Assembly: GCA_963790795.1 (NCBI GenBank)
Contig: CAWBPO010000001.1
Coordinates: 268,073 to 332,072, forward strand
DNA from: an uncultured bacterium
Lineage (GTDB): Bacteria; Patescibacteriota; Minisyncoccia; Minisyncoccales; RBG-13-42-11
Direction: 5' to 3'
Length of the DNA: 64,000 nucleotides
This document shows, piece after piece, positions 10,576 through 61,315 of this stretch; position 1 is the first letter of the stretch; the number at the start of each line of letters is the position of its first letter. Under the pieces are notes generated by a model. That model was not told where the DNA came from. It ran no database searches and saw only the letters and a program-made list of their open reading frames with translations. The position numbers and the translations under genes are program-made.

Positions 10576-10602
10576 AAAAACAGAAATTGTTTGGAATGAG
10601 AA

Positions 10603-10632
10603 AACCGGTGAATTATGCTCGCCGGTTTTTTG
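10603..10632 (+). terminator. rho-independent terminator
   Basis: ACCGGTG-aattatgct-CGCCGGT followed by TTTTTT. A second perfect hairpin TGTTGAAGT-cta-ACTTCAACA follows at ~10632..10652. Confidence 0.7.
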
Positions 10633-10697
10633 TTGAAGTCTAACTTCAACAATCTATGGTTTGATATATCGAACAAAGTTTGATATAATTAACCTAT

Positions 10698-11000
10698 ATG
10701 AAAGAACGATTAGCGTTGAGGCCGACCTTATTTTGGGAGGTAAATCCTAAAAAGCTTGATGAGCAAAAAGATGCCGAATTTATCATCGGACGGGTCTTGG
10801 ATTTTGGCAACTTAAGAGAGTGGAAAGCAATAAAAGATTTTTACGGTTTAGCCAAGATAAAAAAGATCGTCCAGGAGCATATTTTTTCCGACCCGCGCAG
10901 CGCTAATTTCTGGGCAATGATATTCGGCATTCATTTAAAAAATTTACGATGCAAGAAGAAGTTCTCACTAAAAACACCAAAAGCGTTCTCAATGCGTTAG
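10698..11000 (+). CDS. small protein upstream of AbiEii-like gene, candidate antitoxin (DUF6922-like by recall)
   Basis: 100-aa ORF overlapping the next gene by 52 nt. Motif LFWEVNPKKLDEQKDAEFIIGRVLDFGNLREW resembles the small partner proteins found with short AbiEii-family genes. Confidence 0.45.
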   Translation: MKERLALRPTLFWEVNPKKLDEQKDAEFIIGRVLDFGNLREWKAIKDFYGLAKIKKIVQEHIFSDPRSANFWAMIFGIHLKNLRCKKKFSLKTPKAFSMR

Positions 11001-11581: not shown

Positions 11582-11638
11582 ACGCTATTATAGAATTGAA
11601 TACTGCATTATTAATTTTAAATTTAAAATTTTAATTCT

Positions 11639-11953
11639 ATGTTAACTTTTTTCTTCGCCGGCTTTTTGGGCGGCGCAATAAGGGGACTCCTTGGCATTAT
11701 TAAGCACACTCTTTCTTACAAGGACGTGAAAATGCGTTGGGGGTATTTTAGCTCTCTGGCTTTCATTTCAGGATTTATCGGCTTGATTTCGGTCTGGATA
11801 ATACAGGAACTGGGCATTGCTTTTCTTGAGGTTAAAGTGCTTTCTCCGGCAATTGCTTTGATTGTCGGGTATGCCGGAGGCGATTTTTTGGAAAACATTT
11901 TCAAAGTCATAATCAAAAAGCCCATTCTTTTTGAACAGGAAAAGGAAGAATAG
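11639..11953 (+). CDS. small integral membrane protein (3 predicted TM), unknown function
   Basis: 104-aa ORF with hydrophobic segments FFFAGFLGGAIRGLLGII, LAFISGFIGLISVWII and LSPAIALIVGYAGG. Confidence 0.5.
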   Translation: MLTFFFAGFLGGAIRGLLGIIKHTLSYKDVKMRWGYFSSLAFISGFIGLISVWIIQELGIAFLEVKVLSPAIALIVGYAGGDFLENIFKVIIKKPILFEQEKEE

Positions 11954-11987
11954 ATTTTATTCGTATTTTGATACTTTTTGACACCTA

Positions 11988-12016
11988 TTGACACCCTTGC
12001 TTGGGTGTTTTAATAT
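11988..12016 (+). promoter_or_regulatory. sigma-70-type promoter (TTGACA-17 nt-TAATAT)
   Basis: TTGACA 11988..11993, 17-nt spacer, TAATAT 12011..12016. A second TTGACA lies 10 nt upstream at 11978. Confidence 0.5.
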
Positions 12017-12022
12017 TAAATA

Positions 12023-12175
12023 TATGCCCCGTAATACAACTTCCAGTAGGTGCGTTTCGTAACAAACGCCAGGGCATAACTTAAATGATTGTAAATATGA
12101 AACCATTATCAAATAACCATCAATAGAGCAAAACGCACCTGACGGCGTTTGGCTCTGGAAGTTGATATACGGGGT
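12023..12175 (+). promoter_or_regulatory. ~150-nt structured 5' leader with mutually exclusive pairings, upstream of the HTH gene
   Basis: Long-range arms CCCCGTAATACAACTTCCAG (12027..12046) / CTGGAAGTTGATATACGGGG (12155..12174) and AGGTGCGTTT (12048..12057) / AAACGCACCT (12131..12140). Competing local hairpins GCGTTT-cgtaac-AAACGC (12052..12069) and AAACGC-acctgacg-GCGTTT (12131..12150). The 3' arm ends 1 nt before ATG 12176. Confidence 0.4.
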
Positions 12176-12421
12176 ATGCCGGAAATCAATCCAAAAGAAG
12201 TATATACAACCAAAGAAGCACAGGATTTCTTGAAAGTTAGTTCGAGCACGATTAAACGACTGTTGAAACGGGGAATAATCAAAGCTTATAAGGTTGGCGG
12301 CACTTACCGGATCTGGGGGAGCGAAATTTTAGAATTGGTTTCTCCGAAATTGGAGAAAAAAGTTTACAGAGTTTATAAAAAGGTCAAAGATAAAACAAGA
12401 GAAACCATTGAGAAGTGGTGA
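12176..12421 (+). CDS. excisionase-family / MerR-like helix-turn-helix DNA-binding protein
   Basis: ORF 12149..12421 has a TTG start inside the leader helix; ATG 12176 is preferred. YTTKEAQDFLKVSSSTIKRLLKRGIIKAYKVGGTYRI matches the HTH_17/excisionase DNA-binding pattern. Confidence 0.7.
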   Translation: MPEINPKEVYTTKEAQDFLKVSSSTIKRLLKRGIIKAYKVGGTYRIWGSEILELVSPKLEKKVYRVYKKVKDKTRETIEKW

Positions 12422-12439
12422 TTTTTTATTGCTAATTTT

Positions 12440-26125: not shown

Positions 26126-26878
26126 ATGGAAAAAAATATTCCTAAAATCTATAACAGTCCTGAAGAAAAAACAATTCGGGAACAATTTGTCGAATATTTT
26201 AGAAAGTGTCCCATTCCGAACGATCAGATTCTTTCTAATCTTGGATTGTTTCTAAATTCCAAGAACCTTTCAAGGATTATTTTTATGGATTATCTTTACA
26301 GGAAAATTATTGATGTTCAAGGAATTGTTGTTGAATTTGGAACGTGGTGGGGACAAAATTTATCTTTATTTTCTGCTCTTAGAGGAATATATGAACCGTT
26401 TAATCGTCACAGAAAAATAGTTGGTTTCGACACTTTTACCGGCTTTCCTTCTATTTCAGAAAAAGATGGCAGTTCCGATCTTGTAAACAAAGGAAATCTT
26501 GCCTTAACCGAGAATTACGTTGACTACTTAAAGAAAATAATGGAATTTCAAGAAAAAGACAATCCTTTGTCCCACATTAAGAAATTCGAGATTGTGCCTG
26601 GAGACGCTACGGTAACAATAAATAAGTTTCTTGAGGACAATCCGGAAACAATTATTGCTCTCGCTTATTTTGATTTTGACATTTACGAGCCCACTAAAAA
26701 ATGCTTGGAAGCAATTAAACCCAGATTAGTGAAAGGGAGTATTTTAGGATTTGACGAGCTTAATGACCATGATTCGCCTGGCGAAACCTTGGCGCTTGAT
26801 GAAGTCTTCGGATTAAACAACATAAAATTAAGGAGATATCCTTATGCTTCAAGGACTTCTTATTTTGTCGTTGAATAA
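26126..26878 (+). CDS. TylF/MycF-like (macrocin-O-methyltransferase family) SAM-dependent sugar O-methyltransferase
   Basis: GIVVEFGTWWGQNLSLFSAL..., RKIVGFDTFTGFP and IALAYFDFDIYEPTKKCLEAIKPRLVKGSILGFDE follow the family architecture. Confidence 0.6.
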   Translation: MEKNIPKIYNSPEEKTIREQFVEYFRKCPIPNDQILSNLGLFLNSKNLSRIIFMDYLYRKIIDVQGIVVEFGTWWGQNLSLFSALRGIYEPFNRHRKIVGFDTFTGFPSISEKDGSSDLVNKGNLALTENYVDYLKKIMEFQEKDNPLSHIKKFEIVPGDATVTINKFLEDNPETIIALAYFDFDIYEPTKKCLEAIKPRLVKGSILGFDELNDHDSPGETLALDEVFGLNNIKLRRYPYASRTSYFVVE

Positions 26879-39634: not shown

Positions 39635-40737
39635 AACTTGAGGTTCCTTTCGTAAATTATAAATTGCAATATCAGAATTTGAAGAAAGAAGTAGACAATG
39701 TGATCCAAGGCGTTCTGAGCAGGGGAGATTTGATTTTAAGGCAGGATGTCGAAGAGTTTGAAAAGAACTTAGCTTCGGCTGCCGGCACTAAATACGCAGT
39801 GGGTCTGAATTCTGGTACAGATGCCTTAATTTTGTCTTTAAGGGCAGTTGGCATTGGTCCGGGAGACGAGGTGATAACAGTTTCCCACACTTTTTTGGCT
39901 TCAATCGCCGCTGTTGTTCACGTTGGAGCCAAGCCGGTTTTAATAGAAGTAAAAGAAGATTTTACGATTGACGTTGAGCAGATAGAAAAGGCTTTAACAG
40001 AGAGAACAAAAGCCATAATACCCGTTCATCTGAACGGCAGAGTTTGCCAGATGGATAAATTAATGGACATTGCCAGAAAGAACAATTTAATTGTCATTGA
40101 AGACGCTGCCCAGGCCTTACAAGCTGAATTTAAAGGCAAAAAAGCAGGGTCTTTTGGTAAGACAGGCTGTTTCAGTTTTTATCCGGCAAAGATTCTTGGG
40201 GCTTACGGCGATGCTGGCGGAGTGACCACCGACGACGAGGAGATTGCAGAAAAGATAAGGCTTTTCAGAGATCACGGGCAAAAAACAAAAACTGAAATTG
40301 TTTGTTATGGATGGAATTCAAGACTGGATAATATTCAAGCAGCTGTTCTTAATCTTAAATTCAAATATTTGCCAGAATGGATAAAAAGGCGAAGAGAGGT
40401 TGCTGCAATTTATAGTAATGGTTTGAGCGGCGTTTCCGGAGTGGAACTCCCTCCTGCTCTTGATTCTGACGATAAACATTTTGACGTTTTCCAGAATTAC
40501 GTTTTAAAAACGCAAAAAAGAGACGAACTTTTTAATTTTTTGAAGGGAAAAGGAGTGGAAACTTTGATTAAAGACCCGATTGCCAACCATCTTCATCAGA
40601 ATTTGGGACTTTCTCATTTTAAGCTTCCTTACACGGAAAAACTGGCAAAAGAAGTTATTTCTTTACCTCTTTATCCTGAATTAACCCAGGAGCAAATAGA
40701 ATACGTTATTGAATGCGTCAGAAATTTTTATGAATGA
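39631..40737 (+). CDS. DegT/DnrJ/EryC1/StrS-family PLP-dependent sugar aminotransferase (PglE-like)
   Basis: NSGTDALILSLRAVGIGPGDEVITVSHTF, IIEDAAQAL and the FSFYPAKILGAYGDAGG lysine motif. Confidence 0.85.
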   Translation: MKLEVPFVNYKLQYQNLKKEVDNVIQGVLSRGDLILRQDVEEFEKNLASAAGTKYAVGLNSGTDALILSLRAVGIGPGDEVITVSHTFLASIAAVVHVGAKPVLIEVKEDFTIDVEQIEKALTERTKAIIPVHLNGRVCQMDKLMDIARKNNLIVIEDAAQALQAEFKGKKAGSFGKTGCFSFYPAKILGAYGDAGGVTTDDEEIAEKIRLFRDHGQKTKTEIVCYGWNSRLDNIQAAVLNLKFKYLPEWIKRRREVAAIYSNGLSGVSGVELPPALDSDDKHFDVFQNYVLKTQKRDELFNFLKGKGVETLIKDPIANHLHQNLGLSHFKLPYTEKLAKEVISLPLYPELTQEQIEYVIECVRNFYE

Positions 40738-45014: not shown

Positions 45015-45934
45015 ATGGATATCAATAAGTTTTTACCATCAGTCAGAAAAGACGTTCTATTGAAGAATTACACTACTTTTAGAATTGGCGGGCCAGCCAG
45101 ATATTTTTTTCAAGCAAAAAGCAAAGATGATTTGCTTTTGGCGTTTAAAACGGCAAAAAGATTTAATTTGCCTTTTTTTATTTTGGGCGGAGGAAGCAAC
45201 TTGCTGGTTTCGGACAAAGGATTTAACGGAATAGTTATTAAAATTGAAAATTGTAAATTGAAAATTGAAAATTGTAAAGTAAGTACTGATACTGGAGTAC
45301 CGTTGAACAAATTAATTAGTCTTTCAGTTGAAAAATCATTAACAGGTATGGAGTGGGCATCGGGAATTCCCGGGACAGTCGGCGGAGCTATTTTTGGAAA
45401 TGCCGGAGCTTTCGGAAAATCGATGAAAAATGTCGTTAGAAAGGTTGAAGTTTTCAATGCGAAAAATTTGAAATTTGAAACATATAATTTAAAAGACTGC
45501 AGATTTGATTATCGAGAAAGCGTTTTTAAGAAAAAAAAGAATTTAATTATAGTATCTGTGTTTCTAAAATTGAAAAAAGGAAAAAAACTGGAAATTAAAA
45601 AGAGAATTAAAGAATATATTGATTATAAAAAAAATACTCAGCCCTTAAATTATCCTTCAGCTGGGTCTGTGTTTAAAAATCCGGATAAAAAATCTGCCGC
45701 TCGGCAGGAAGAGGATCTCTTCTCAAAATTTCGTTGATTGAAGATTGCGGTTTGAAAGGAAAAACAATGGGAAAAGCAAAAATTTCCGGGAAGCACGCCA
45801 ATTTTATTGTTAATTTGGGCGGAGCTCGGGCAGAAAACGTTAAAAATTTGATAAATTTTACAAAAAAGGCGGTAAAAAAACGTTTCGGAGTGTCGCTAAA
45901 AGAGGAAATTCAATATTTGGGTTTTGAAAATTAG
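45015..45934 (+). pseudogene. murB: UDP-N-acetylenolpyruvoylglucosamine reductase gene split by a frameshift (ORFs 45015..45737 and 45734..45934)
   Basis: N-terminal part: NYTTFRIGGPARYF, ILGGGSNLLVSD, GIPGTVGGAIFGNAGAFG, PSAGSVFKNP. C-terminal part in the -1 frame: LIEDCGLKGKTMGKAKISGKHANFIVNLGGA...FGVSLKEEIQYLG. The join falls at 45702..45735. Confidence 0.85.
45240..45281 (+). repeat. 21-bp in-frame tandem duplication inside murB
   Basis: AAAATTGAAAATTGTAAATTG / AAAATTGAAAATTGTAAAGTA, encoding KIENCKL-KIENCKV. Confidence 0.85.
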
Positions 45935-46124
45935 ATTTTTTCCATTTTCCATTTTTATTTTCTATTTTTCGGTTTTCCACACTTGACAAAGTTTTTCAAA
46001 ATGAAAAAATATACTAATGGATGCGAATAGTTAGTCGACTATTCGCTGAGACTCTTTTAAAAATCGTTACCATTCTCATGGCAAAGAAAAAAGCAAAGAA
46101 AAAGAAGAAATAAATTATTTTCTC

Positions 46125-46157
46125 CCCCTCACTTAAAAAGTGAGGGGTTGTTTTTTT
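46125..46157 (+). terminator. rho-independent terminator after the poly-Lys mini-ORF
   Basis: CCCCTCACT-taaaa-AGTGAGGGG followed by TTGTTTTTTT. Confidence 0.75.
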
Positions 46158-46224
46158 ATTACTCTTTACAAAAAAGTTTTTTAATGCTAAAAAGATAAAA
46201 AGAATAATTTTAACAAGATAACCG

Positions 46225-46334
46225 GTTAATCGCTTTTTGTTTCACTCTTTGTTTTTCCGAGCACATAATCAGCAAACTTATATGCTCGGTTAGCTGGGGA
46301 AAGTTTAAAATCTTTCCTGTGGTAAGCGATTGAC
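46225..46334 (+). promoter_or_regulatory. candidate structured leader (three-way junction) directly upstream of speH
   Basis: P1 GTTAATCGCTT (46225..46235) / AAGCGATTGAC (46324..46334), 11 bp including one G.U. P2 CCGAGCACATAA (46257..46268) / TTATATGCTCGG (46278..46289). P3 GGAAAG (46298..46303) / CTTTCC (46312..46317). The P1 3' arm ends 9 nt before ATG 46344. Confidence 0.35.
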
Positions 46335-46343
46335 TACAGTATT

Positions 46344-51583: not shown

Positions 51584-53053
51584 ATGTCAAAGAAAAAGCT
51601 TTATATCACCATTGTTTTTATTTTTATTCTGACTCTTTTTGCCGGAATCTTCAGTTATCCTGATTATTTCAACCGTGGAATAGATTCTTTCAATAATCTG
51701 AAAGTTTCAGTTTTTGGCTTTCAGATTCAAACGCCTCATTTTCCCAAGGCTCCTTTTGTGCTGGGGCTTGATTTACGGGGCGGAATCCAGCTGATTTATG
51801 AGGCGGATTTATCCAATATTGATGACGCGGACAAAACAGAAACAATGGAAGGATTAAGAGATGTGATTGAAAGGAGGGTGAATCTGTACGGCGTGACCGA
51901 GCCTGTTGTTCAAATACAGGGAGAAAAAAGATTAATTGTTGAACTGGCTGGCGTAAAAGACATTGGAGAGGCAATAAAAATGATAGGAGAGACCCCTTAT
52001 TTAGAATTCAGGGAAATGCTTTCTCCGGAAGAAAAAGAAGAAGCCAAAAACAGCTTTTCCGAGGAGGATATTTCGCAGATAATAAACGCTTACAAGGAGC
52101 AGACTGGCCAGGAAAAAACCAAGGATGAGATTTTGGACATGCTGACTTCTAATTTATTAAAGCCGACAGAACTGACCGGCAAATATTTGAAAAGAGCAGA
52201 CATTGCTTTTGATCCGAATACCAACAAGCCTGAGGTTTCTCTTCAATTCAAAGAAGAAGGAGAAAAATTGTTTGAAGAAATTACCGAAAGAAATGCTGGC
52301 AAGCCATTAGCTATTTTTTTGGATGACCAGTCAATCGTTGACACTGACGGTGACGGTAAAATAACAGAAAATGACCTTTATGCTCCCATTGTCCAGGAGA
52401 AAATTACCGGAGGGAAAGCAGTAATTACCGGCAATATGAACATTAACGAAGCCAAAGAGATTGTCAGAAGATTGAATTCCGGCGCTTTACCCGTTAAAAT
52501 CGGTACTCCCATTTATCAGAAATTAATTGGTCCGACATTGGGCCAGGTTTCTTTGGAAAAATCTTTAAAAGCCGGCATTTTCGGCTTTCTGGCAGTAATT
52601 TTATTCATGATAATTTTCTACCGCTTGCCGGGAATTCTCGCTTCTTTTGCTCTGGTAATTTACGCAGTTTTAGTTTTATTCCTTTTTAAGATAATTCCGG
52701 TTACTTTGACTTTGGCTGGTATTGGTGGCTTTGTCTTGTCTGTTGGTATGGCGGTTGACGCCAATATTTTGATTTTTTCCAGAATGAAGGAAGAACTGAA
52801 GCAAGGTAAAGATTTTGAACAAAGTGTAAAAGAGGGTTTTGACAGGGCCTGGCCGTCCATCAGAGACAGCAATTTCAATTCGCTTATCGTTTGCATCATT
52901 CTGTTCAGTTTCGCAACTAATTTTATAAAAGGATTCGCTTTCACTTTGAGCTTGGGAATTTTGGTTTCAATGTTTTCAGCGATTATTATTACGAGAACTT
53001 TTCTTAAATGCTTTATTAGAACAAGGCTTGAGAAAATTAAATGGCTTTGGTAA
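51584..53053 (+). CDS. secD: protein translocase subunit SecD
   Basis: LGLDLRGGIQLIYEAD, periplasmic domain, and a C-terminal 6-TM RND-like region GIGGFVLSVGMAVDANILIFSRMKEE. Confidence 0.9.
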   Translation: MSKKKLYITIVFIFILTLFAGIFSYPDYFNRGIDSFNNLKVSVFGFQIQTPHFPKAPFVLGLDLRGGIQLIYEADLSNIDDADKTETMEGLRDVIERRVNLYGVTEPVVQIQGEKRLIVELAGVKDIGEAIKMIGETPYLEFREMLSPEEKEEAKNSFSEEDISQIINAYKEQTGQEKTKDEILDMLTSNLLKPTELTGKYLKRADIAFDPNTNKPEVSLQFKEEGEKLFEEITERNAGKPLAIFLDDQSIVDTDGDGKITENDLYAPIVQEKITGGKAVITGNMNINEAKEIVRRLNSGALPVKIGTPIYQKLIGPTLGQVSLEKSLKAGIFGFLAVILFMIIFYRLPGILASFALVIYAVLVLFLFKIIPVTLTLAGIGGFVLSVGMAVDANILIFSRMKEELKQGKDFEQSVKEGFDRAWPSIRDSNFNSLIVCIILFSFATNFIKGFAFTLSLGILVSMFSAIIITRTFLKCFIRTRLEKIKWLW

Positions 53054-53056
53054 TTT

Positions 53057-53962
53057 ATGTCAATTAAATTTTTAAAATATTCAAAACTTTATTTTATTCT
53101 CTCCGGAATTTTGATTTTAGCAAGCATTGTTTCTATCTGTGTTTTCGGCTTGAAATTCGGCATAGAGTTTACCGGCGGCAGCATCATGGAGCTGTCATTT
53201 CAAGATGAGAGGCCTTCATTGGAGAATATACAGCAAAATCTTTCTCAGTTTAATCTGGGCGAAATTATCGTGCAGCCGATGGCTGACAATGAAATGATTC
53301 TGAAAATGAAAGAAATAGACGAAACGACTCACGAGAAAATTATTTTAAAATTACAAGAAGTGTCTAGTTTTGAAGAAAAGAGCTTTGAGGTGATCGGCCC
53401 GACAATCGGCACAGAATTAAAGCAAAAAACAAAAAACGCCGTAATTTTAGTATTGCTTGCCATTACCCTTTATATCACTTTCGCCTTCAGAAAGGTTTCC
53501 TGGTCGGCTATCCGCTCCTGGCAATATGGAATAGCCTCTCTTATTGCTTTGTTCCACGATGTCATAATTCCTCTTGGCGTTCTTGCCGTTTTGGGAGAAT
53601 TATATAATGTTGAGATTACCATTCCGGTTATTGCTGCTTTGTTAACCATTTTGGGCTATTCAGTTCATGACACCATAGTGATTTTTGACAGAATAAGAGA
53701 GAATCTGCTTAAGACAAAATTCAAGTCATTTGAAGAAACAGTTGACGCAAGCTTGAACCAAACTCTTCTTCGGTCAATCAGCACTGTCTTTACTGTTTTG
53801 CTCGTTCTTTTTGCCATTTTCTTTTTCGGCGGCCGGACCCTGCAGTCTTTTTCCCTTATTTTGATTATCGGAATCAGCAGCGGCGCCTATTCTTCCATCT
53901 TTGTGGCAAGCCCCATATTGGTTGCTTGGGCAAAATGGAAGCAAAATAAGGGAAAGGTTTGA
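53057..53962 (+). CDS. secF: protein translocase subunit SecF
   Basis: GIEFTGGSIMEL, LFHDVIIPLGVLAVLG and GYSVHDTIVIFDRIRENL. Confidence 0.9.
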   Translation: MSIKFLKYSKLYFILSGILILASIVSICVFGLKFGIEFTGGSIMELSFQDERPSLENIQQNLSQFNLGEIIVQPMADNEMILKMKEIDETTHEKIILKLQEVSSFEEKSFEVIGPTIGTELKQKTKNAVILVLLAITLYITFAFRKVSWSAIRSWQYGIASLIALFHDVIIPLGVLAVLGELYNVEITIPVIAALLTILGYSVHDTIVIFDRIRENLLKTKFKSFEETVDASLNQTLLRSISTVFTVLLVLFAIFFFGGRTLQSFSLILIIGISSGAYSSIFVASPILVAWAKWKQNKGKV

Positions 53963-56335: not shown

Positions 56336-58009
56336 ATGACCAACGAAGAAATCAATTTTTTTGCTGTAACCACTTTTAGAAACCAAAGGAAAAAATTCGG
56401 GATTAAAACCGATGACAGGCGTCGGCATGTTTATGTTATCGGTAAAACAGGCATGGGTAAAACTTTGATGTTGAGGAATATGGCCCTTCAGGACATCCAG
56501 CAGGGCAAAGGAATCGGTTTCATTGATCCGCACGGCGAGGCAGCTGAAGAATTATTGGACTGTATTCCTTCAAACAGGGTTAACGACGTAATCTATTTTA
56601 ATCCGGCTGACATTGATTATCCGATTGCTTTCAACATTATGGAAAGTGTTGGCGTGGAACACCGGCATTTGGTCGCTTCTGGCTTGATGGGCGTTTTTAA
56701 GAAAATCTGGCCTGATGTTTGGTCAGCTAGAATGGAATACATTTTGAACAATTCAATTTTAGCTCTTTTGGAATATCCAGGAGCCACTCTTTTGGGCGTT
56801 AACAGAATGCTGGCTGATCCTGAATACCGGAAAAAAGTGGTTGAAAAAGTGATGGATCCGGTGGTTAAATCTTTCTGGACCCAGGAATTCGCCAGATACG
56901 CCCAGAGATACGAGGTGGAAGCAACTGCGGCCATACAGAACAAAATTGGCCAGTTCATCTCCAATCCTTTAATCAGGAACATTATCGGCCAGGTAAGGTC
57001 CAGCATTAATATGAGGAATATTATGGATGAAAAGAAGATTTTTATAATGAATATATCAAAAGGAAGAGTGGGAGAAGACAATTCCAGGCTGCTTGGCGCT
57101 CTTTTAATCACCAAGCTTCAGCTGGCAGCCATGTCCAGAGTGGATGTTCCTGAAGAAAAAAGAAATGATTTTTTCCTTTATGTTGACGAATTCCAGAACT
57201 TTGCCACAGAATCATTCACCAATATTTTGTCTGAAGCGAGAAAATACAGGCTGGCTTTGCTTTTGGGGCATCAGTATATTGCCCAGATGGATGAAACGGT
57301 CAGAGACGCGGTTTTCGGCAACGTTGGCACAATTGTCTCTTTCAGAGTCGGAGCGGAAGACGCAGAATATTTGGAAAAAGAATTCGCTCCTGATTTTACT
57401 GCTGAAGACTTGGTCAATTTGCCGAAATACAACGTTTATTTGAAATTGATGATTGATGGGGTTGCCGGTCCTGCTTTTTCGGCAGAAACTTTGTCTCCTT
57501 TACCGGCCCTTGAAAAATCAAACCAGGAAAAAATCATTAAAGTTTCAAGAGAGAGATACAGCACTCCGAGAAAAGTTATTGAAGAAAAAATTGCCAAGTG
57601 GACAGGAATGTTAAATGTTGCGGAAACTCCGATGCAGCCATCTTCCCAGCCCTTGTATGACGCCAAATGCGCTTTGTGCGGCAAATGGACAAAAGTGATT
57701 TTTGAGCCGACTGCTTCCCGTCCCGTTTATTGCAAAACCTGCTTGAAAAAAGTTAAAAAACCTTCTGCTGAAAGGGAAAAACCAGTTTTGCCGGCCAACG
57801 AGCCAGAAAAGAGAAAAGAAGAAAGACCAAGGGTTTCTCTCCAAGAAGCAGTTGGCAAAACGCCTGTTTCTTTTTCTAGCAGAACAACAACTGGAAAAGA
57901 AGAAAAAAGGAAGCCAAGAAAAGAAGTTAATTTGGAAGAATTAAAAAAAACATTAGAAGAATCTTTAAAAGATGTAGAAAAAAAAGATGAAGGGGCTGGG
58001 GGACTTTAA
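56336..58009 (+). CDS. FtsK/HerA/TraD-superfamily P-loop ATPase (type IV coupling-protein-like) with C-terminal CxxC...CxxC zinc ribbon and K/E-rich tail
   Basis: Walker A HVYVIGKTGMGKT, Walker B FFLYVDEFQNFAT, ARKYRLALLLGHQY. Zinc ribbon CALCGKWTKVIFEPTASRPVYCKTC. Confidence 0.7.
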   Translation: MTNEEINFFAVTTFRNQRKKFGIKTDDRRRHVYVIGKTGMGKTLMLRNMALQDIQQGKGIGFIDPHGEAAEELLDCIPSNRVNDVIYFNPADIDYPIAFNIMESVGVEHRHLVASGLMGVFKKIWPDVWSARMEYILNNSILALLEYPGATLLGVNRMLADPEYRKKVVEKVMDPVVKSFWTQEFARYAQRYEVEATAAIQNKIGQFISNPLIRNIIGQVRSSINMRNIMDEKKIFIMNISKGRVGEDNSRLLGALLITKLQLAAMSRVDVPEEKRNDFFLYVDEFQNFATESFTNILSEARKYRLALLLGHQYIAQMDETVRDAVFGNVGTIVSFRVGAEDAEYLEKEFAPDFTAEDLVNLPKYNVYLKLMIDGVAGPAFSAETLSPLPALEKSNQEKIIKVSRERYSTPRKVIEEKIAKWTGMLNVAETPMQPSSQPLYDAKCALCGKWTKVIFEPTASRPVYCKTCLKKVKKPSAEREKPVLPANEPEKRKEERPRVSLQEAVGKTPVSFSSRTTTGKEEKRKPRKEVNLEELKKTLEESLKDVEKKDEGAGGL

Positions 58010-59021
58010 TTTTAAAAATAAAAGAGTTTTGCTCCGATGCGATTTTGACGTTCCTGTGGCAAACGGAGTTATTCTGGACGATTTCAGAATTAAAAAAGCT
58101 TTGCCGACCATACAATATTTGGTTGGAAAGGGAGCTAAACTCATTTTAATGGCTCACTTGGACAGGCCTGAAGGGAAAACAGTTGAAGAACTGAAATTGA
58201 CTCTGGTTCAAAAAAAGTTATCGGAGTATTTGAGTTTATCCGTAATCCAAGCTCAAGACTGCGCAGGTTCTCAGGTTGACAAGCTGGTCAATGAATTGAA
58301 GCCAGGCGAAATATTGCTTTTGGAAAATTTAAGATTCCGCAAAGAAGAAGAGGAAAATGACGATAATTTTTCCAGGAATTTGGCAAAGCTGGGAGATGTA
58401 TATATTAACGACGCTTTTGCCAATTCGCACAGAAACCATGCTTCAATTGTTGGCCTGCCAAAATATCTGCCTTCTGCTGCAGGGATGTTGTTTAAAGAAG
58501 AAGTTGATGCTTTGAGTAGGATAAAAGACAATCCTGAAAGGCCTTTAGTTGCTATTATCGGCGGAGAAAAAGTGGAAACAAAAATGGAATTGGTTGATAA
58601 GATTTCCGAGAATGCTGATTTTGTTCTTATCGGCGGATTGATAAAAGAAGCAATGCAAAAAAACAATATTCAGCTGAAAAATTACCAGAAAATTGTTGAA
58701 CCCGTTAATGATGTCGGCAAAAAAGATATCGGTCCTGAAACCATCAGTCTTTTCAAGGAAAAAATACATTCAGCTAAAACTGTTTTTTGGAACGGTCCTT
58801 TGGGCCAGACCGAAGAAAAAGAATTTACTGTTGGGACCGAAGAAATTGCCAGGGCGATTGTTCAAAGCAAAGCGTTTTCCGTTGTCGGAGGTAGCAATAC
58901 AGTAGAGTTTTTAAGCAAAATCGGCTTGATTGATAAGTTTAGTCATATTTCCACTGGCGGAGGAGCGATGATAGCTTTTTTGAGCGGAGAGAAACTTCCT
59001 GGAATAGAAGCGTTGAGGTAA
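57987..59021 (+). CDS. pgk: phosphoglycerate kinase (compact, 344 aa)
   Basis: KRVLLRCDFDVPV, LILMAHLDRPEG, LLENLRFRKEEE, NDAFANSHRNHAS, FWNGPLGQTEE and HISTGGGAMIAFLSGEKLPGIEAL. Confidence 0.85.
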   Translation: MKGLGDFNFKNKRVLLRCDFDVPVANGVILDDFRIKKALPTIQYLVGKGAKLILMAHLDRPEGKTVEELKLTLVQKKLSEYLSLSVIQAQDCAGSQVDKLVNELKPGEILLLENLRFRKEEEENDDNFSRNLAKLGDVYINDAFANSHRNHASIVGLPKYLPSAAGMLFKEEVDALSRIKDNPERPLVAIIGGEKVETKMELVDKISENADFVLIGGLIKEAMQKNNIQLKNYQKIVEPVNDVGKKDIGPETISLFKEKIHSAKTVFWNGPLGQTEEKEFTVGTEEIARAIVQSKAFSVVGGSNTVEFLSKIGLIDKFSHISTGGGAMIAFLSGEKLPGIEALR

Positions 59022-59165
59022 AAAAAACCGGGGAAACCGAATGAGTCGAAAGAAATAAGCTATGGAGCAAATGAATAACGCATAATAGCCTATCTCACAT
59101 TCGGTTTCCCCGTATGAGGAAAACAGGTACTTCACCCGCTGAACCCCCAAACAGAAAAGTACTAT
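59021..59165 (-). ncRNA. candidate ~145-nt small RNA of unknown class, bounded by its own promoter and intrinsic terminator
   Basis: Minus-strand promoter at 59199..59172. Extended hairpin CGGGGAAACCGAATG (59029..59043) / CATTCGGTTTCCCCG (59098..59112), plus an inner 9-bp stem that needs a G.U pair only on the minus-strand RNA. The minus-strand hairpin is followed by a U9 run (plus-strand A-run 59020..59028). Confidence 0.45.
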
Positions 59166-59171
59166 ATTATA

Positions 59172-59199
59172 ATTATACTCTTTTTAAATAATTTGTCAA
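59172..59199 (-). promoter_or_regulatory. consensus sigma-70 promoter on the minus strand (TTGACA-16 nt-TATAAT)
   Basis: The reverse complement of 59172..59199 reads TTGACAAATTATTTAAAAAGAGTATAAT. Confidence 0.55.
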
Positions 59200-59200
59200 G

Positions 59201-60385
59201 ATGCAAGAAATCAATCCTTCGACTTCGTTCAGGATTAATGGTGAGCGTAGTCGAACCATCAAGAACTTAAAGAAGGCAGCCAGCCGCATTTTAAAAGCAA
59301 TTCAAAAAAAAGAGAGAATTATTCTTTACGGAGATGCTGATTTAGACGGCACAACATCGGTCATTATCTTAAAAGAAACCATCAAGACTTTGGGCGGAAA
59401 TATTTCAGCTTTTTATTTCCCGGATAGAGAAACTGAAGGTTACGGCCTCACTGAAAAAGGCCTTGATTTTTTGAAAAAGGAATCTCCCGCCTTAATAATC
59501 GTTTTGGACTGCGGTATAGGTAACTTGAAGGAAGTGAAATTGGCGAAAAAAATTGGTTTCAAGGTTATTATTGTTGACCATCATGAAACTTTGGACAAAT
59601 TGCCTGAAGCTGAAATAATAGTTGACCCAAAGCAAAAAAGCGACAAATATCCTTTTAAAAAATTAGCTTGTGTCGGGATAGCTTTCAAGCTTTCGGAAGC
59701 CATACTTGGCAAGAAAATGACAGAAAGCCTAAGAAGGAACTTTTTAGAGATGACAGCCATTGCCACTGTCGCTGATATGATGCCGAAAGAATCGGAAAAC
59801 AAGATTTTTATTGAACAGGGACTTTCTTATTTGGAAAGCTCTTGGAGGCCAGGCATCAGAGCTTTTTTGGAATCGTTTAAAGAGTATTCGGACATCAATC
59901 AAAAAGTTTCCAAAATCATTTCAATTTTGAACATTAGGGACGTAAAAGAAAGTCTTCCAGCCAGCTTCAGACTGTTGACATGTTCTTCTCTAGAGAAAGC
60001 AGAGAAAATTATCGGGGAATTGTTGGAAAAATCAGAAGTGAGGAGAGAAAAAATGGAAGAAATGATGGCTGAAGTGGAAAAAAGATTAACGGAAAAAGAA
60101 GAATCGATAATTTTTGAAGGCGATACAATCTTTGAATTGACGCTTATCAGCTCAATTGCTTCGATACTCTGCCGCAAATATCTCAAGCCAGTTTTCCTTT
60201 ATAAAAAGATGGAAAAAGAAAGCCAGGGCACGGTCAGAACGCCAAAAGAAACAAACGGAGTTTCTTTGATGAGGAATTGTTCAGAGCTTTTGCTGACTTT
60301 TGGCGGACATGCTCAGGCAGCCGGTTTCAGGGTAAAAAATGAAAACTTGGAAAAATTTAAAAGTTGTTTAATTAGAAATATATGA
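59201..60385 (+). CDS. DHH/DHHA1 phosphoesterase, RecJ-core-like single-stranded-DNA exonuclease or nanoRNase
   Basis: DHH motifs ILYGDADLDGTTS, VLDCG and IIVDHH. DHHA1 motif FGGHAQAAGF. Shorter (394 aa) than canonical RecJ. Confidence 0.7.
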   Translation: MQEINPSTSFRINGERSRTIKNLKKAASRILKAIQKKERIILYGDADLDGTTSVIILKETIKTLGGNISAFYFPDRETEGYGLTEKGLDFLKKESPALIIVLDCGIGNLKEVKLAKKIGFKVIIVDHHETLDKLPEAEIIVDPKQKSDKYPFKKLACVGIAFKLSEAILGKKMTESLRRNFLEMTAIATVADMMPKESENKIFIEQGLSYLESSWRPGIRAFLESFKEYSDINQKVSKIISILNIRDVKESLPASFRLLTCSSLEKAEKIIGELLEKSEVRREKMEEMMAEVEKRLTEKEESIIFEGDTIFELTLISSIASILCRKYLKPVFLYKKMEKESQGTVRTPKETNGVSLMRNCSELLLTFGGHAQAAGFRVKNENLEKFKSCLIRNI

Positions 60386-60855: not shown

Positions 60856-60861
60856 AAATAT

Positions 60862-61250
60862 CCCAGCAAGCTCGTAAGCCGAATTCTGTTTTAAGCGATC
60901 ATCTGTCTGGGCCCTTGATTGCTCTCAGGCTCGAGCGAACTACTTTTCACCCCTATAAGATAGTGATTTATCTCATTGGGATTTGTTCTTGCACCCAGTA
61001 AGGATTTAGCCGTTTCACCCCTGCATTGCTGCAGGACTTTCCCGTGGTTTTACGGGCTGCTCAACCTTTCGGTTCAGCTCGTCTCTGTTCGCACCTCTCC
61101 GAGCACATAATCAAATTATGTGCTGCGGGACGGCTGTTAGCCGCTACTTTTTTATCGAGCACATAATTTAATTATGTGCTACGAGAGTGTTCGGACTTTC
61201 CTCTGAACATATAAAGTTTTATAGGTTCAGCGATCACTCGGCTTGCTAGG
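60862..61250 (-). ncRNA. rnpB: RNase P RNA (bacterial type)
   Basis: Minus strand carries CR-I GAGGAAAGUCCGAAC (complement of 61189..61205) and CR-V ACAGAAUUCGGCUUACG (complement of 60873..60890). P1 forms between CCUAGCAAGCCGAG (5') and CGAGCUUGCUGGG (3'). GGGGUGAAA motifs are present. Length ~390 nt. Confidence 0.85.
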
Positions 61251-61315
61251 ATATTATAATTCTAGCAGAATTGAAAACTTTGTCAAATCTGAAAATTGAG
61301 GTAAAATAATTCATA

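Follow-up and report, generated by a model that had tools for sequence, protein, structure and literature searches.

A putative clade-restricted small RNA gene on the minus strand between pgk and a DHH phosphoesterase gene in a Nealsonbacteria-like bacterium

By analyzing a stretch of 64,000 nucleotides (nt), hereafter the window (GenBank assembly GCA_963790795.1, contig CAWBPO010000001.1, positions 268,073 to 332,072), from an uncultured bacterium of the Candidate Phyla Radiation (CPR; Patescibacteriota, Minisyncoccales), we found that the spacer of 179 nt (59022..59200) separating pgk from a DHH-phosphoesterase gene very probably holds a real small RNA (sRNA) gene, restricted to one clade and constituting a new family in Nealsonbacteria-like CPR bacteria. 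Judged from sequence comparison, the best explanation for the locus as a whole would be an independently transcribed, structured non-coding sRNA that is stable and acts in trans, and we put the probability of this reading at roughly 0.6. A separate minus-strand non-coding RNA of about 145 nt, equipped with its own promoter and terminator, had been proposed in a preliminary description of this DNA, and conservation, fold, covariation and strand all argue for it. That description had also called the RNA an orphan, a label that has to be dropped, as orthologs were identified in two related loci, namely L044 and L049.

The predicted transcription unit begins with a sigma-70-type promoter that reads TTGACA-16-TATAAT on the minus strand (59199..59172), just as previously reported. 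It was also said to abut the start codon of a recJ-like gene; its -35 hexamer indeed lies only 1 nt from the ATG at 59201, and the gene in question encodes a DHH/DHHA1 phosphoesterase. In a hexamer scan, this 12/12 match turned out to be unique in the whole window. When up to one mismatch was allowed, four matches were found against 0.5 expected, the sole other intergenic one being the promoter of the RNase P RNA gene (rnpB). By analogy with that gene, transcription would start at around 59163-59165, i.e. 7-9 nt past the -10 hexamer.

Following the minus strand, the promoter and start are succeeded by a 5' hairpin (59149..59115), a long bipartite hairpin and a run of U residues, of which there are eight (59027..59020) and not nine as first counted. 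The outer stem of the bipartite hairpin was correctly described as perfect, since its 15 bp are 100% complementary; it is GC-rich at its base and leads directly into the U8 tract. The 9-bp inner stem, with a single G.U pair that exists only in the minus-strand RNA, was likewise recovered. For the complete minus-strand transcript, the folding energy is -56.1 kcal/mol (z = -6.7), and for its core hairpin it is -41.4 kcal/mol (z = -7.8). Neither the stem arm nor the whole hairpin recurs within the window, and a test for repeats of the repetitive extragenic palindrome or miniature inverted-repeat transposable element type, in which a stem-arm search was combined with a covariance model (R1) of this short form of the RNA, found no credible second copy in this stretch, which makes up 12% of the genome. 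A weak R1 match at 26164..26258 on the minus strand (20.7 bits, E ~0.02) was judged false, being situated antisense within the coding sequence 26126..26878 and having many broken pairs.

The RNA recurs, with site and orientation unchanged, in the two nearest lineages possessing this RNA body, namely L044 (JGI Ga0401129_0026167, sample JGI 3300038952), whose DHH protein is 86% identical to that of the window, and L049 (sample SRR22315506; 72% identical), the basal member of the clade described below. In L044, the promoter is TTGACA-16-TATAAT, the bipartite terminator hairpin is followed by U9, and the 5' hairpin has a like layout (GAGG-uu-AGCAGA-gau-UCUGCU-uu-CCUC). L049 has TTGACA-17-TTTAAT and the same bipartite hairpin, followed by U5AU3, but its 5' hairpin differs in being AU-rich. 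A U-tract 3' of the hairpin is accordingly present on the minus strand in all three loci. Compared with shuffles, the transcript of L044 resembles that of the window with z = 19, and the transcript of L049 does so with z = 6.

Covariation was counted over the core hairpins of the window, L044 and L049 in an alignment (A5) made by hand, with N treated as a gap. Standard pairs were found in 98.5% of the cells, and 13 of the 24 stem pairs had changed on both sides. None of 500 shuffles reached the observed values, and when the partners were slid by 1-3 columns, only 37-49% of the cells paired. Helix 1, i.e. the outer stem, is paired in 97.6% of its cells and includes six pairs with changes on both sides. 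Helix 2, the inner stem, is 100% paired in all three sequences, with both-side changes in seven of its nine pairs; this stem is dispensable for termination. The hairpin is thereby seen to be kept in both relatives with compensatory changes, the kind of conservation that had been suggested as a check on the gene.

At four-fold degenerate sites of the flanking genes, identity to the window is 54-57% in L044 and 31-43% in L049, which is near saturation for an A+T-rich genome. Despite these near-saturated neutral sites, the loops and the promoter hexamers are nearly invariant. L044 agrees with the window at 19 of the 21 positions of the apical loop, and the core CGUU..CAUU..CUCC is found in L049 as well. 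The 3' internal loop UUCUUUCGAC is identical in L044 at 10 of 10 positions, and its UUCGAC part also occurs in L049. The -35 hexamer TTGACA is found in L044, L049, L003, L006 and L045, and the -10 hexamer TATAAT, with the spacing likewise kept, in all of these except L049.

That two unpaired motifs are conserved, together with a stem that termination does not require, suggests that the RNA itself has a molecular function. According to the mechanism we propose, the consensus sigma-70 promoter next to the DHH start would drive a minus-strand RNA of about 145 nt, consisting of the 5' hairpin and the long bipartite hairpin, whose GC-rich outer stem and U8 would terminate transcription at the pgk stop. 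The RNA would then accumulate as a stable RNA in the manner of rnpB, and its apical loop (CGUU..UUCAUU..CUCC, with UUCAUU at the apex and CUCC flanking it) and the UUCGAC element would contact a protein or another RNA. This last part, i.e. stable accumulation and action in trans via the two conserved unpaired elements, is put forward tentatively, and we would give it not quite even odds. Known parallels are RsaE and RoxS, C-rich-loop trans-acting sRNAs of Hfq-independent bacteria, which resemble the candidate in being stable hairpin RNAs with a conserved pyrimidine-rich (CUCC) motif in the apical loop and a terminator hairpin at the end. They differ in that no Rfam match was obtained here and in that occlusion of Shine-Dalgarno (SD) sequences is unlikely, as an SD-like motif in the region -20..-4 was found at only 6 of the 53 predicted gene starts of the window. 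The leaders are A/U-rich, and the organism apparently initiates translation largely without SD pairing. Viral contigs were scanned as well; the 15 matches to a 17-mer of the loop are at about chance level according to a rough estimate that was not computed, and the one match to a composite motif proved unrelated when inspected.

Several points weigh against this explanation. The pair counts given above are inflated because A5 was fitted to the structure by hand, and the RNA body is known from three sequences only (window, L044 and L049). As the terminator is formed by the outer stem, some of the covariation may do no more than preserve termination. The idea that CUCC acts as an anti-SD sequence, with the CUCC/CAU loop masking both SD and AUG, was rejected in view of the 6/53 SD-like starts. 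Moreover, when the apical and internal loops were compared by RNAduplex with all gene starts, the RNase P RNA and the window on both strands, no convincing target was found in this 12% of the genome. The best non-self duplexes (40688..40707, inside a coding sequence, 47521 and 51470) reached about -20 to -21 kcal/mol, which is within the tail of the background, and the longest perfect complementarity elsewhere in the 64 kb is 11 nt. Lastly, a sister subclade has the same promoter in front of an RNA body without detectable similarity, as would be expected if transcription as such, and not the RNA sequence, were what matters.

Relatives were identified by means of the DHH protein; all are CPR bacteria assembled from metagenomes and labeled Nealsonbacteria, Saccharibacteria or Minisyncoccales. 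The pgk-to-DHH gene order is kept in about 40 loci. In most of these the two genes abut or overlap, with intergenic distances of -22 to +13 nt. A neighbor-joining tree of the DHH protein groups all loci with the consensus minus-strand promoter, which every member has kept, in a single clade, {L049, (window, L044), (L006/7, L045-47), (L010, L003/8/9)}, and the sister clades have no spacer. A single insertion of the transcription unit into an operon junction that was ancestrally fused is therefore the most parsimonious scenario. The short form is confined to relatives with a DHH identity of at least 72% and is absent from the site in the sister clades. In the other clade members shown, the -35 hexamer abuts the DHH ATG or lies within 1 nt of it.

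In the sister subclade, i.e. L003/L008/L009, L006/L007, L010 and L045-47 (DHH proteins 77-82% identical), the site is occupied by a long form. Position, strand, the 12/12 promoter and the first bases GUACUUU are the same as in the short form, and the long form likewise ends in its own intrinsic terminator at the pgk stop. Its fold comprises a 10-bp enclosing P1 helix and several internal helices, with seven compensatory pairs, and no Rfam match was found for it. R1 had no match at E <= 10 in L003, L006, L010 or L045, and in shuffle-controlled local alignments the bodies of the two forms were no more similar than shuffles (z = 0.2-1.8). A homology seemingly indicated by motifs in a MAFFT alignment, CAU..CYCC.UAGC and UCGAC, was supported by neither of these comparisons and was given up. 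As no similarity between the bodies could be detected, the long form is treated as a co-located RNA of unproven homology, whose body has either diverged past recognition or been replaced under a conserved promoter.

Other lineages have independent, unrelated and GC-richer spacers of 172-310 nt at the pgk/DHH junction, namely L019 (2820..2991), L021 (1327..1636), L023 (1600..1795), L018 (2757..3000) and L001 (2733..2988). These fold strongly, most of them better on the minus strand, and the motifs CUUCGNAG, GAGAAAUNAGCAG and ACUGCGUG are common to the spacers of L019, L021 and L023. None of the five was matched by Rfam or found to contain a consensus promoter or terminator.

The main rival to a role in trans is a role in cis, i.e. 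antisense action or transcriptional interference, where the minus-strand promoter and terminator would serve to uncouple the ancestrally fused pgk-DHH operon and the sequence of the RNA would matter little. We consider this unlikely as the whole account, although the two roles are not mutually exclusive. The means would be collision or occlusion of RNA polymerase together with antisense pairing to read-through mRNA, possibly with processing of the GadY type. The RNA lies opposite the pgk-to-DHH intercistronic region and is therefore perfectly complementary to any such mRNA. The abutting or overlapping genes of most relatives suggest ancestral co-transcription, and as the promoter scan found no plus-strand promoter of at least 9/12 in the pgk-DHH spacer, expression of the DHH gene probably needs read-through across the sRNA gene. 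It also fits this explanation that the clade-wide features are the positions of promoter and terminator, with the RNA body varying between subclades. What it leaves unexplained is the near-invariance of the apical loop and UUCGAC next to saturated neutral sites, and the compensatory upkeep of an inner stem unneeded for termination; the long-form RNAs, too, keep their internal helices. A known counterpart is GadY of E. coli, encoded opposite the gadX-gadW intergenic region. GadY and the candidate both have their own promoter and terminator and are antisense to the spacer of two co-oriented genes, but the conserved unpaired motifs found here suggest more than plain antisense pairing.

A second alternative places the functional element on the plus strand, as part of the pgk-DHH mRNA, where it could be a stabilizer or processing hairpin, the pgk terminator or the leader of a mini open reading frame (ORF) with the loop GGAGcaaATGaataacgcaTAA. 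The plus-strand counterpart does fold significantly, at -38.2 kcal/mol (z = -4.0) for the whole transcript and -32.0 kcal/mol (z = -6.8) for the core, but in every lineage the intergenic region folds better as minus-strand than as plus-strand RNA (-60.7/-40.0 in the window, -43.1/-36.2 in L044 and -40.7/-38.1 in L049). Several G.U or U.G pairs are found in both stems of L044, in addition to the one in the inner stem of the window, and as such pairs turn into A-C mismatches on the plus strand, the stems favor the minus-strand RNA. A run of U5 follows the hairpin on the plus strand in L044, but neither the window nor L049 has such a tract, in keeping with the earlier remark that the lack of a plus-strand T-tract in the window speaks against a pgk terminator. 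In all three loci the loop resembles an SD sequence plus ATG, giving MNNA* in the window, MNNV* in L044 and an ORF of 11 amino acids (aa) in L049. The mini-ORF was nevertheless rejected, since the SD-to-ATG spacing is a mere 1-3 nt in a genome that barely uses SD motifs, the length varies, and the plus strand carries the A-C mismatches. With the perfect and conserved minus-strand promoter also left unexplained, a plus-strand element seems highly improbable.

As to known RNAs, the preliminary description had recognized no signatures of signal recognition particle (SRP) RNA, transfer-messenger RNA (tmRNA), 6S RNA or tRNA, and the searches bear this out. A scan of the whole window with the 4227 models of Rfam 15 at the gathering threshold, a check proposed earlier, returned the RNase P RNA alone and thus no family at the site, and ARAGORN found no tRNA or tmRNA genes in the 64 kb. 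In a lax scan of 58800..59400 (E <= 10) there were only chance-level matches, the best being on the plus strand with 22.6 bits against a threshold of 43. Rfam scans of eight relatives and the L006 spacer, too, matched nothing but the RNase P RNA. The sRNA is in no described RNA family.

It could still be argued that the locus encodes a highly diverged universal RNA, e.g. 6S or SRP 4.5S RNA, that the covariance models miss in CPR genomes. The promoter is of the strong stable-RNA type common to rnpB, and the RNase P RNA of the window barely passes its own Rfam threshold (101.8 vs 100 bits), so divergent RNAs could escape detection. Small abundant RNAs such as 6S, SRP and tmRNA have strong promoters as well, but their defining structures are absent here. 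6S RNA (RF00013) forms a rod-like helix, about 180 nt long, in which closing and terminal stems flank a large central bubble; the candidate is instead predicted to fold into two separate hairpins, the second having an internal loop of 4/11 nt and an apical loop of 21 nt, and RF00013 had no match at the locus. In SRP (4.5S) RNA (RF00169), helix 8 carries a GNAR tetraloop along with symmetric and asymmetric loops that are conserved, whereas the apical loop UAUGCGUUAUUCAUUUGCUCC contains no tetraloop; no GNRA-capped helix-8 motif was found, nor any Rfam match even at E <= 10 with lax filters. Furthermore, the RNA is confined to relatives closely similar in their DHH protein and missing from the sister clades, whereas universal RNAs are distributed far more widely. 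The architecture and the narrow distribution together make this explanation very hard to sustain.

The likeness to rnpB concerns expression signals. Both genes have TTGACA-16-TA(G/T)AAT followed by TATAATAT, are situated on the minus strand and end in an intrinsic terminator; these signals are conserved throughout the clade, and the string AATTATAATAT after the -10 hexamer is common to the two promoters in the window. The rnpB promoters of the window, L003, L006, L010, L019, L001 and L018 all conform to TTGACA-16/17-TAnAAT and end 9-10 nt ahead of the first model position, and a hairpin plus T-run is found just downstream of most rnpB genes in the window and the six related loci. These shared signals mark the sRNA candidate as a transcription unit of the stable-RNA type. 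The two genes differ in sequence, size and fold, which are unrelated, and in that RNase P RNA is universal and the sRNA limited to one small clade. The sRNA had been said to run against a uniform plus-strand gene flow; it is a minus-strand gene, but the flow is not uniform, the RNase P RNA gene being on the minus strand as well.

With respect to coding potential, the longest ATG-started ORF of the transcript has seven codons (MRYSFAP*) and its ATG is missing from L044, so the claim that no ORF exceeds seven codons stands for ATG starts but not for a TTG-initiated frame, which starts at 59150, stays open over 43 codons as far as the terminator and would give 79 aa if read through. This open frame is all that would favor a small protein gene, or else a chance hairpin beside a chance promoter, an explanation we scarcely credit, since the frame is broken in both L044 and L049, none of the three frames checked is shared among the three loci, promoter, hairpin and loops are conserved far beyond the neutral level, and by chance a window of this size would contain far fewer than one perfect promoter.

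Table 1. Coordinates of the predicted sRNA gene, its parts and associated genes (window positions unless a related locus is named).
Feature	Position	Strand	Remarks
pgk	57987..59021	+	Pfam PGK E = 8e-115; stop codon TAA 59019..59021
DHH/DHHA1 phosphoesterase gene	59201..60385	+	394 aa; ATG at 59201
Sigma-70-type promoter	59172..59199	-	-35 TTGACA 59199..59194, 16-nt spacer, -10 TATAAT 59177..59172
Predicted transcript	59020..59165	-	~146 nt (~145); both ends inferred, 3' end within U-tract
5' hairpin	59115..59149	-	outer pairs UGGGGG / UCCUCA; inner stem of 8 bp, G.U-rich
Outer (terminator) stem, 5' arm	59098..59112	-	CGGGGAAACCGAAUG; pairs with 59029..59043
5' internal loop	59094..59097	-	UGAG, 4 nt; precedes inner-stem 5' arm
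Inner stem, 5' arm	59085..59093 (59093..59085)	-	AUAGGCUAU; 9 bp, one G.U pair
Apical loop	59064..59084	-	UAUGCGUUAUUCAUUUGCUCC, 21 nt; conserved core CGUU(AUU)CAUU(UG)CUCC
Inner stem, 3' arm	59055..59063 (59063..59055)	-	AUAGCUUAU; pairs with AUAGGCUAU
3' internal loop	59044..59054	-	UUCUUUCGACU, 11 nt; UUCGAC conserved
Outer (terminator) stem, 3' arm	59029..59043	-	CAUUCGGUUUCCCCG; pairs with CGGGGAAACCGAAUG
U8 tract of intrinsic terminator	59020..59027	-	overlaps pgk stop codon 59019..59021
RNase P RNA gene (rnpB, RF00010)	60859..61249	-	near-consensus promoter 61286..61259; intrinsic terminator; 1.7 kb from sRNA
Long-form RNA, sister subclade	L003 2775..2968, L006 2737..2958, L010 1128..1340, L045 1784..2003	-	structured, ~190-215 nt

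Some further features of the window were recorded in passing. The PGK protein has 344 aa, its C-terminal domain being about 45 residues shorter than that of the 391-aa PGK of L049, and L003 and L045/L046 share the short form of this protein, as L006 and L010 apparently do too. On the start side, pgk is overlapped by a gene (56336..58009, plus strand) for a TrwB/TraG-like coupling-protein ATPase with a treble-clef zinc finger, an arrangement directly upstream of pgk that is kept in L049 and L053. A near-consensus promoter, TTGACA-16-TTTAAT, is situated on the minus strand at 53036..53063, at the junction of the ORFs 51584..53053 and 53057..53962, and three long spacers (10576..10948, 11582..12439 and 45738..46343) have plus-strand promoter matches of 10-11/12.

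The regulatory and structural sRNAs of CPR bacteria are almost uncharted, and a literature search found nothing on sRNAs in Nealsonbacteria. In its boldest form, the case presented here would mean that structured non-coding RNA genes have repeatedly arisen or landed at the pgk/DHH junction in Nealsonbacteria-like CPR genomes, with unrelated structured spacers acquired independently by at least four lineages, one fixed stable-RNA promoter driving two unrelated bodies (~125-145 nt and ~200 nt), and the short form as a new trans-acting RNA or ribonucleoprotein component. We regard this as a speculation with the odds well against it. If true, however, the short form would be a riboregulator or ribonucleoprotein component in organisms lacking SD-based initiation, where riboregulation is essentially unexplored, and it may be functionally linked to the neighboring genes of RNA metabolism, i.e. 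those for the DHH/NrnA-like phosphoesterase, RNase HI and the RNase P RNA. The known picture of bacterial sRNAs is not overturned by the candidate. The locus is rather a compact example of an rnpB-like consensus promoter combined with a terminator-embedded structured RNA that has covariation support. It has a datable origin, i.e. the insertion into an ancestrally fused operon junction, and the RNA body has apparently been replaced while the promoter was conserved. All this makes the locus well suited for testing how non-coding RNA genes are gained and remodeled in reduced genomes.

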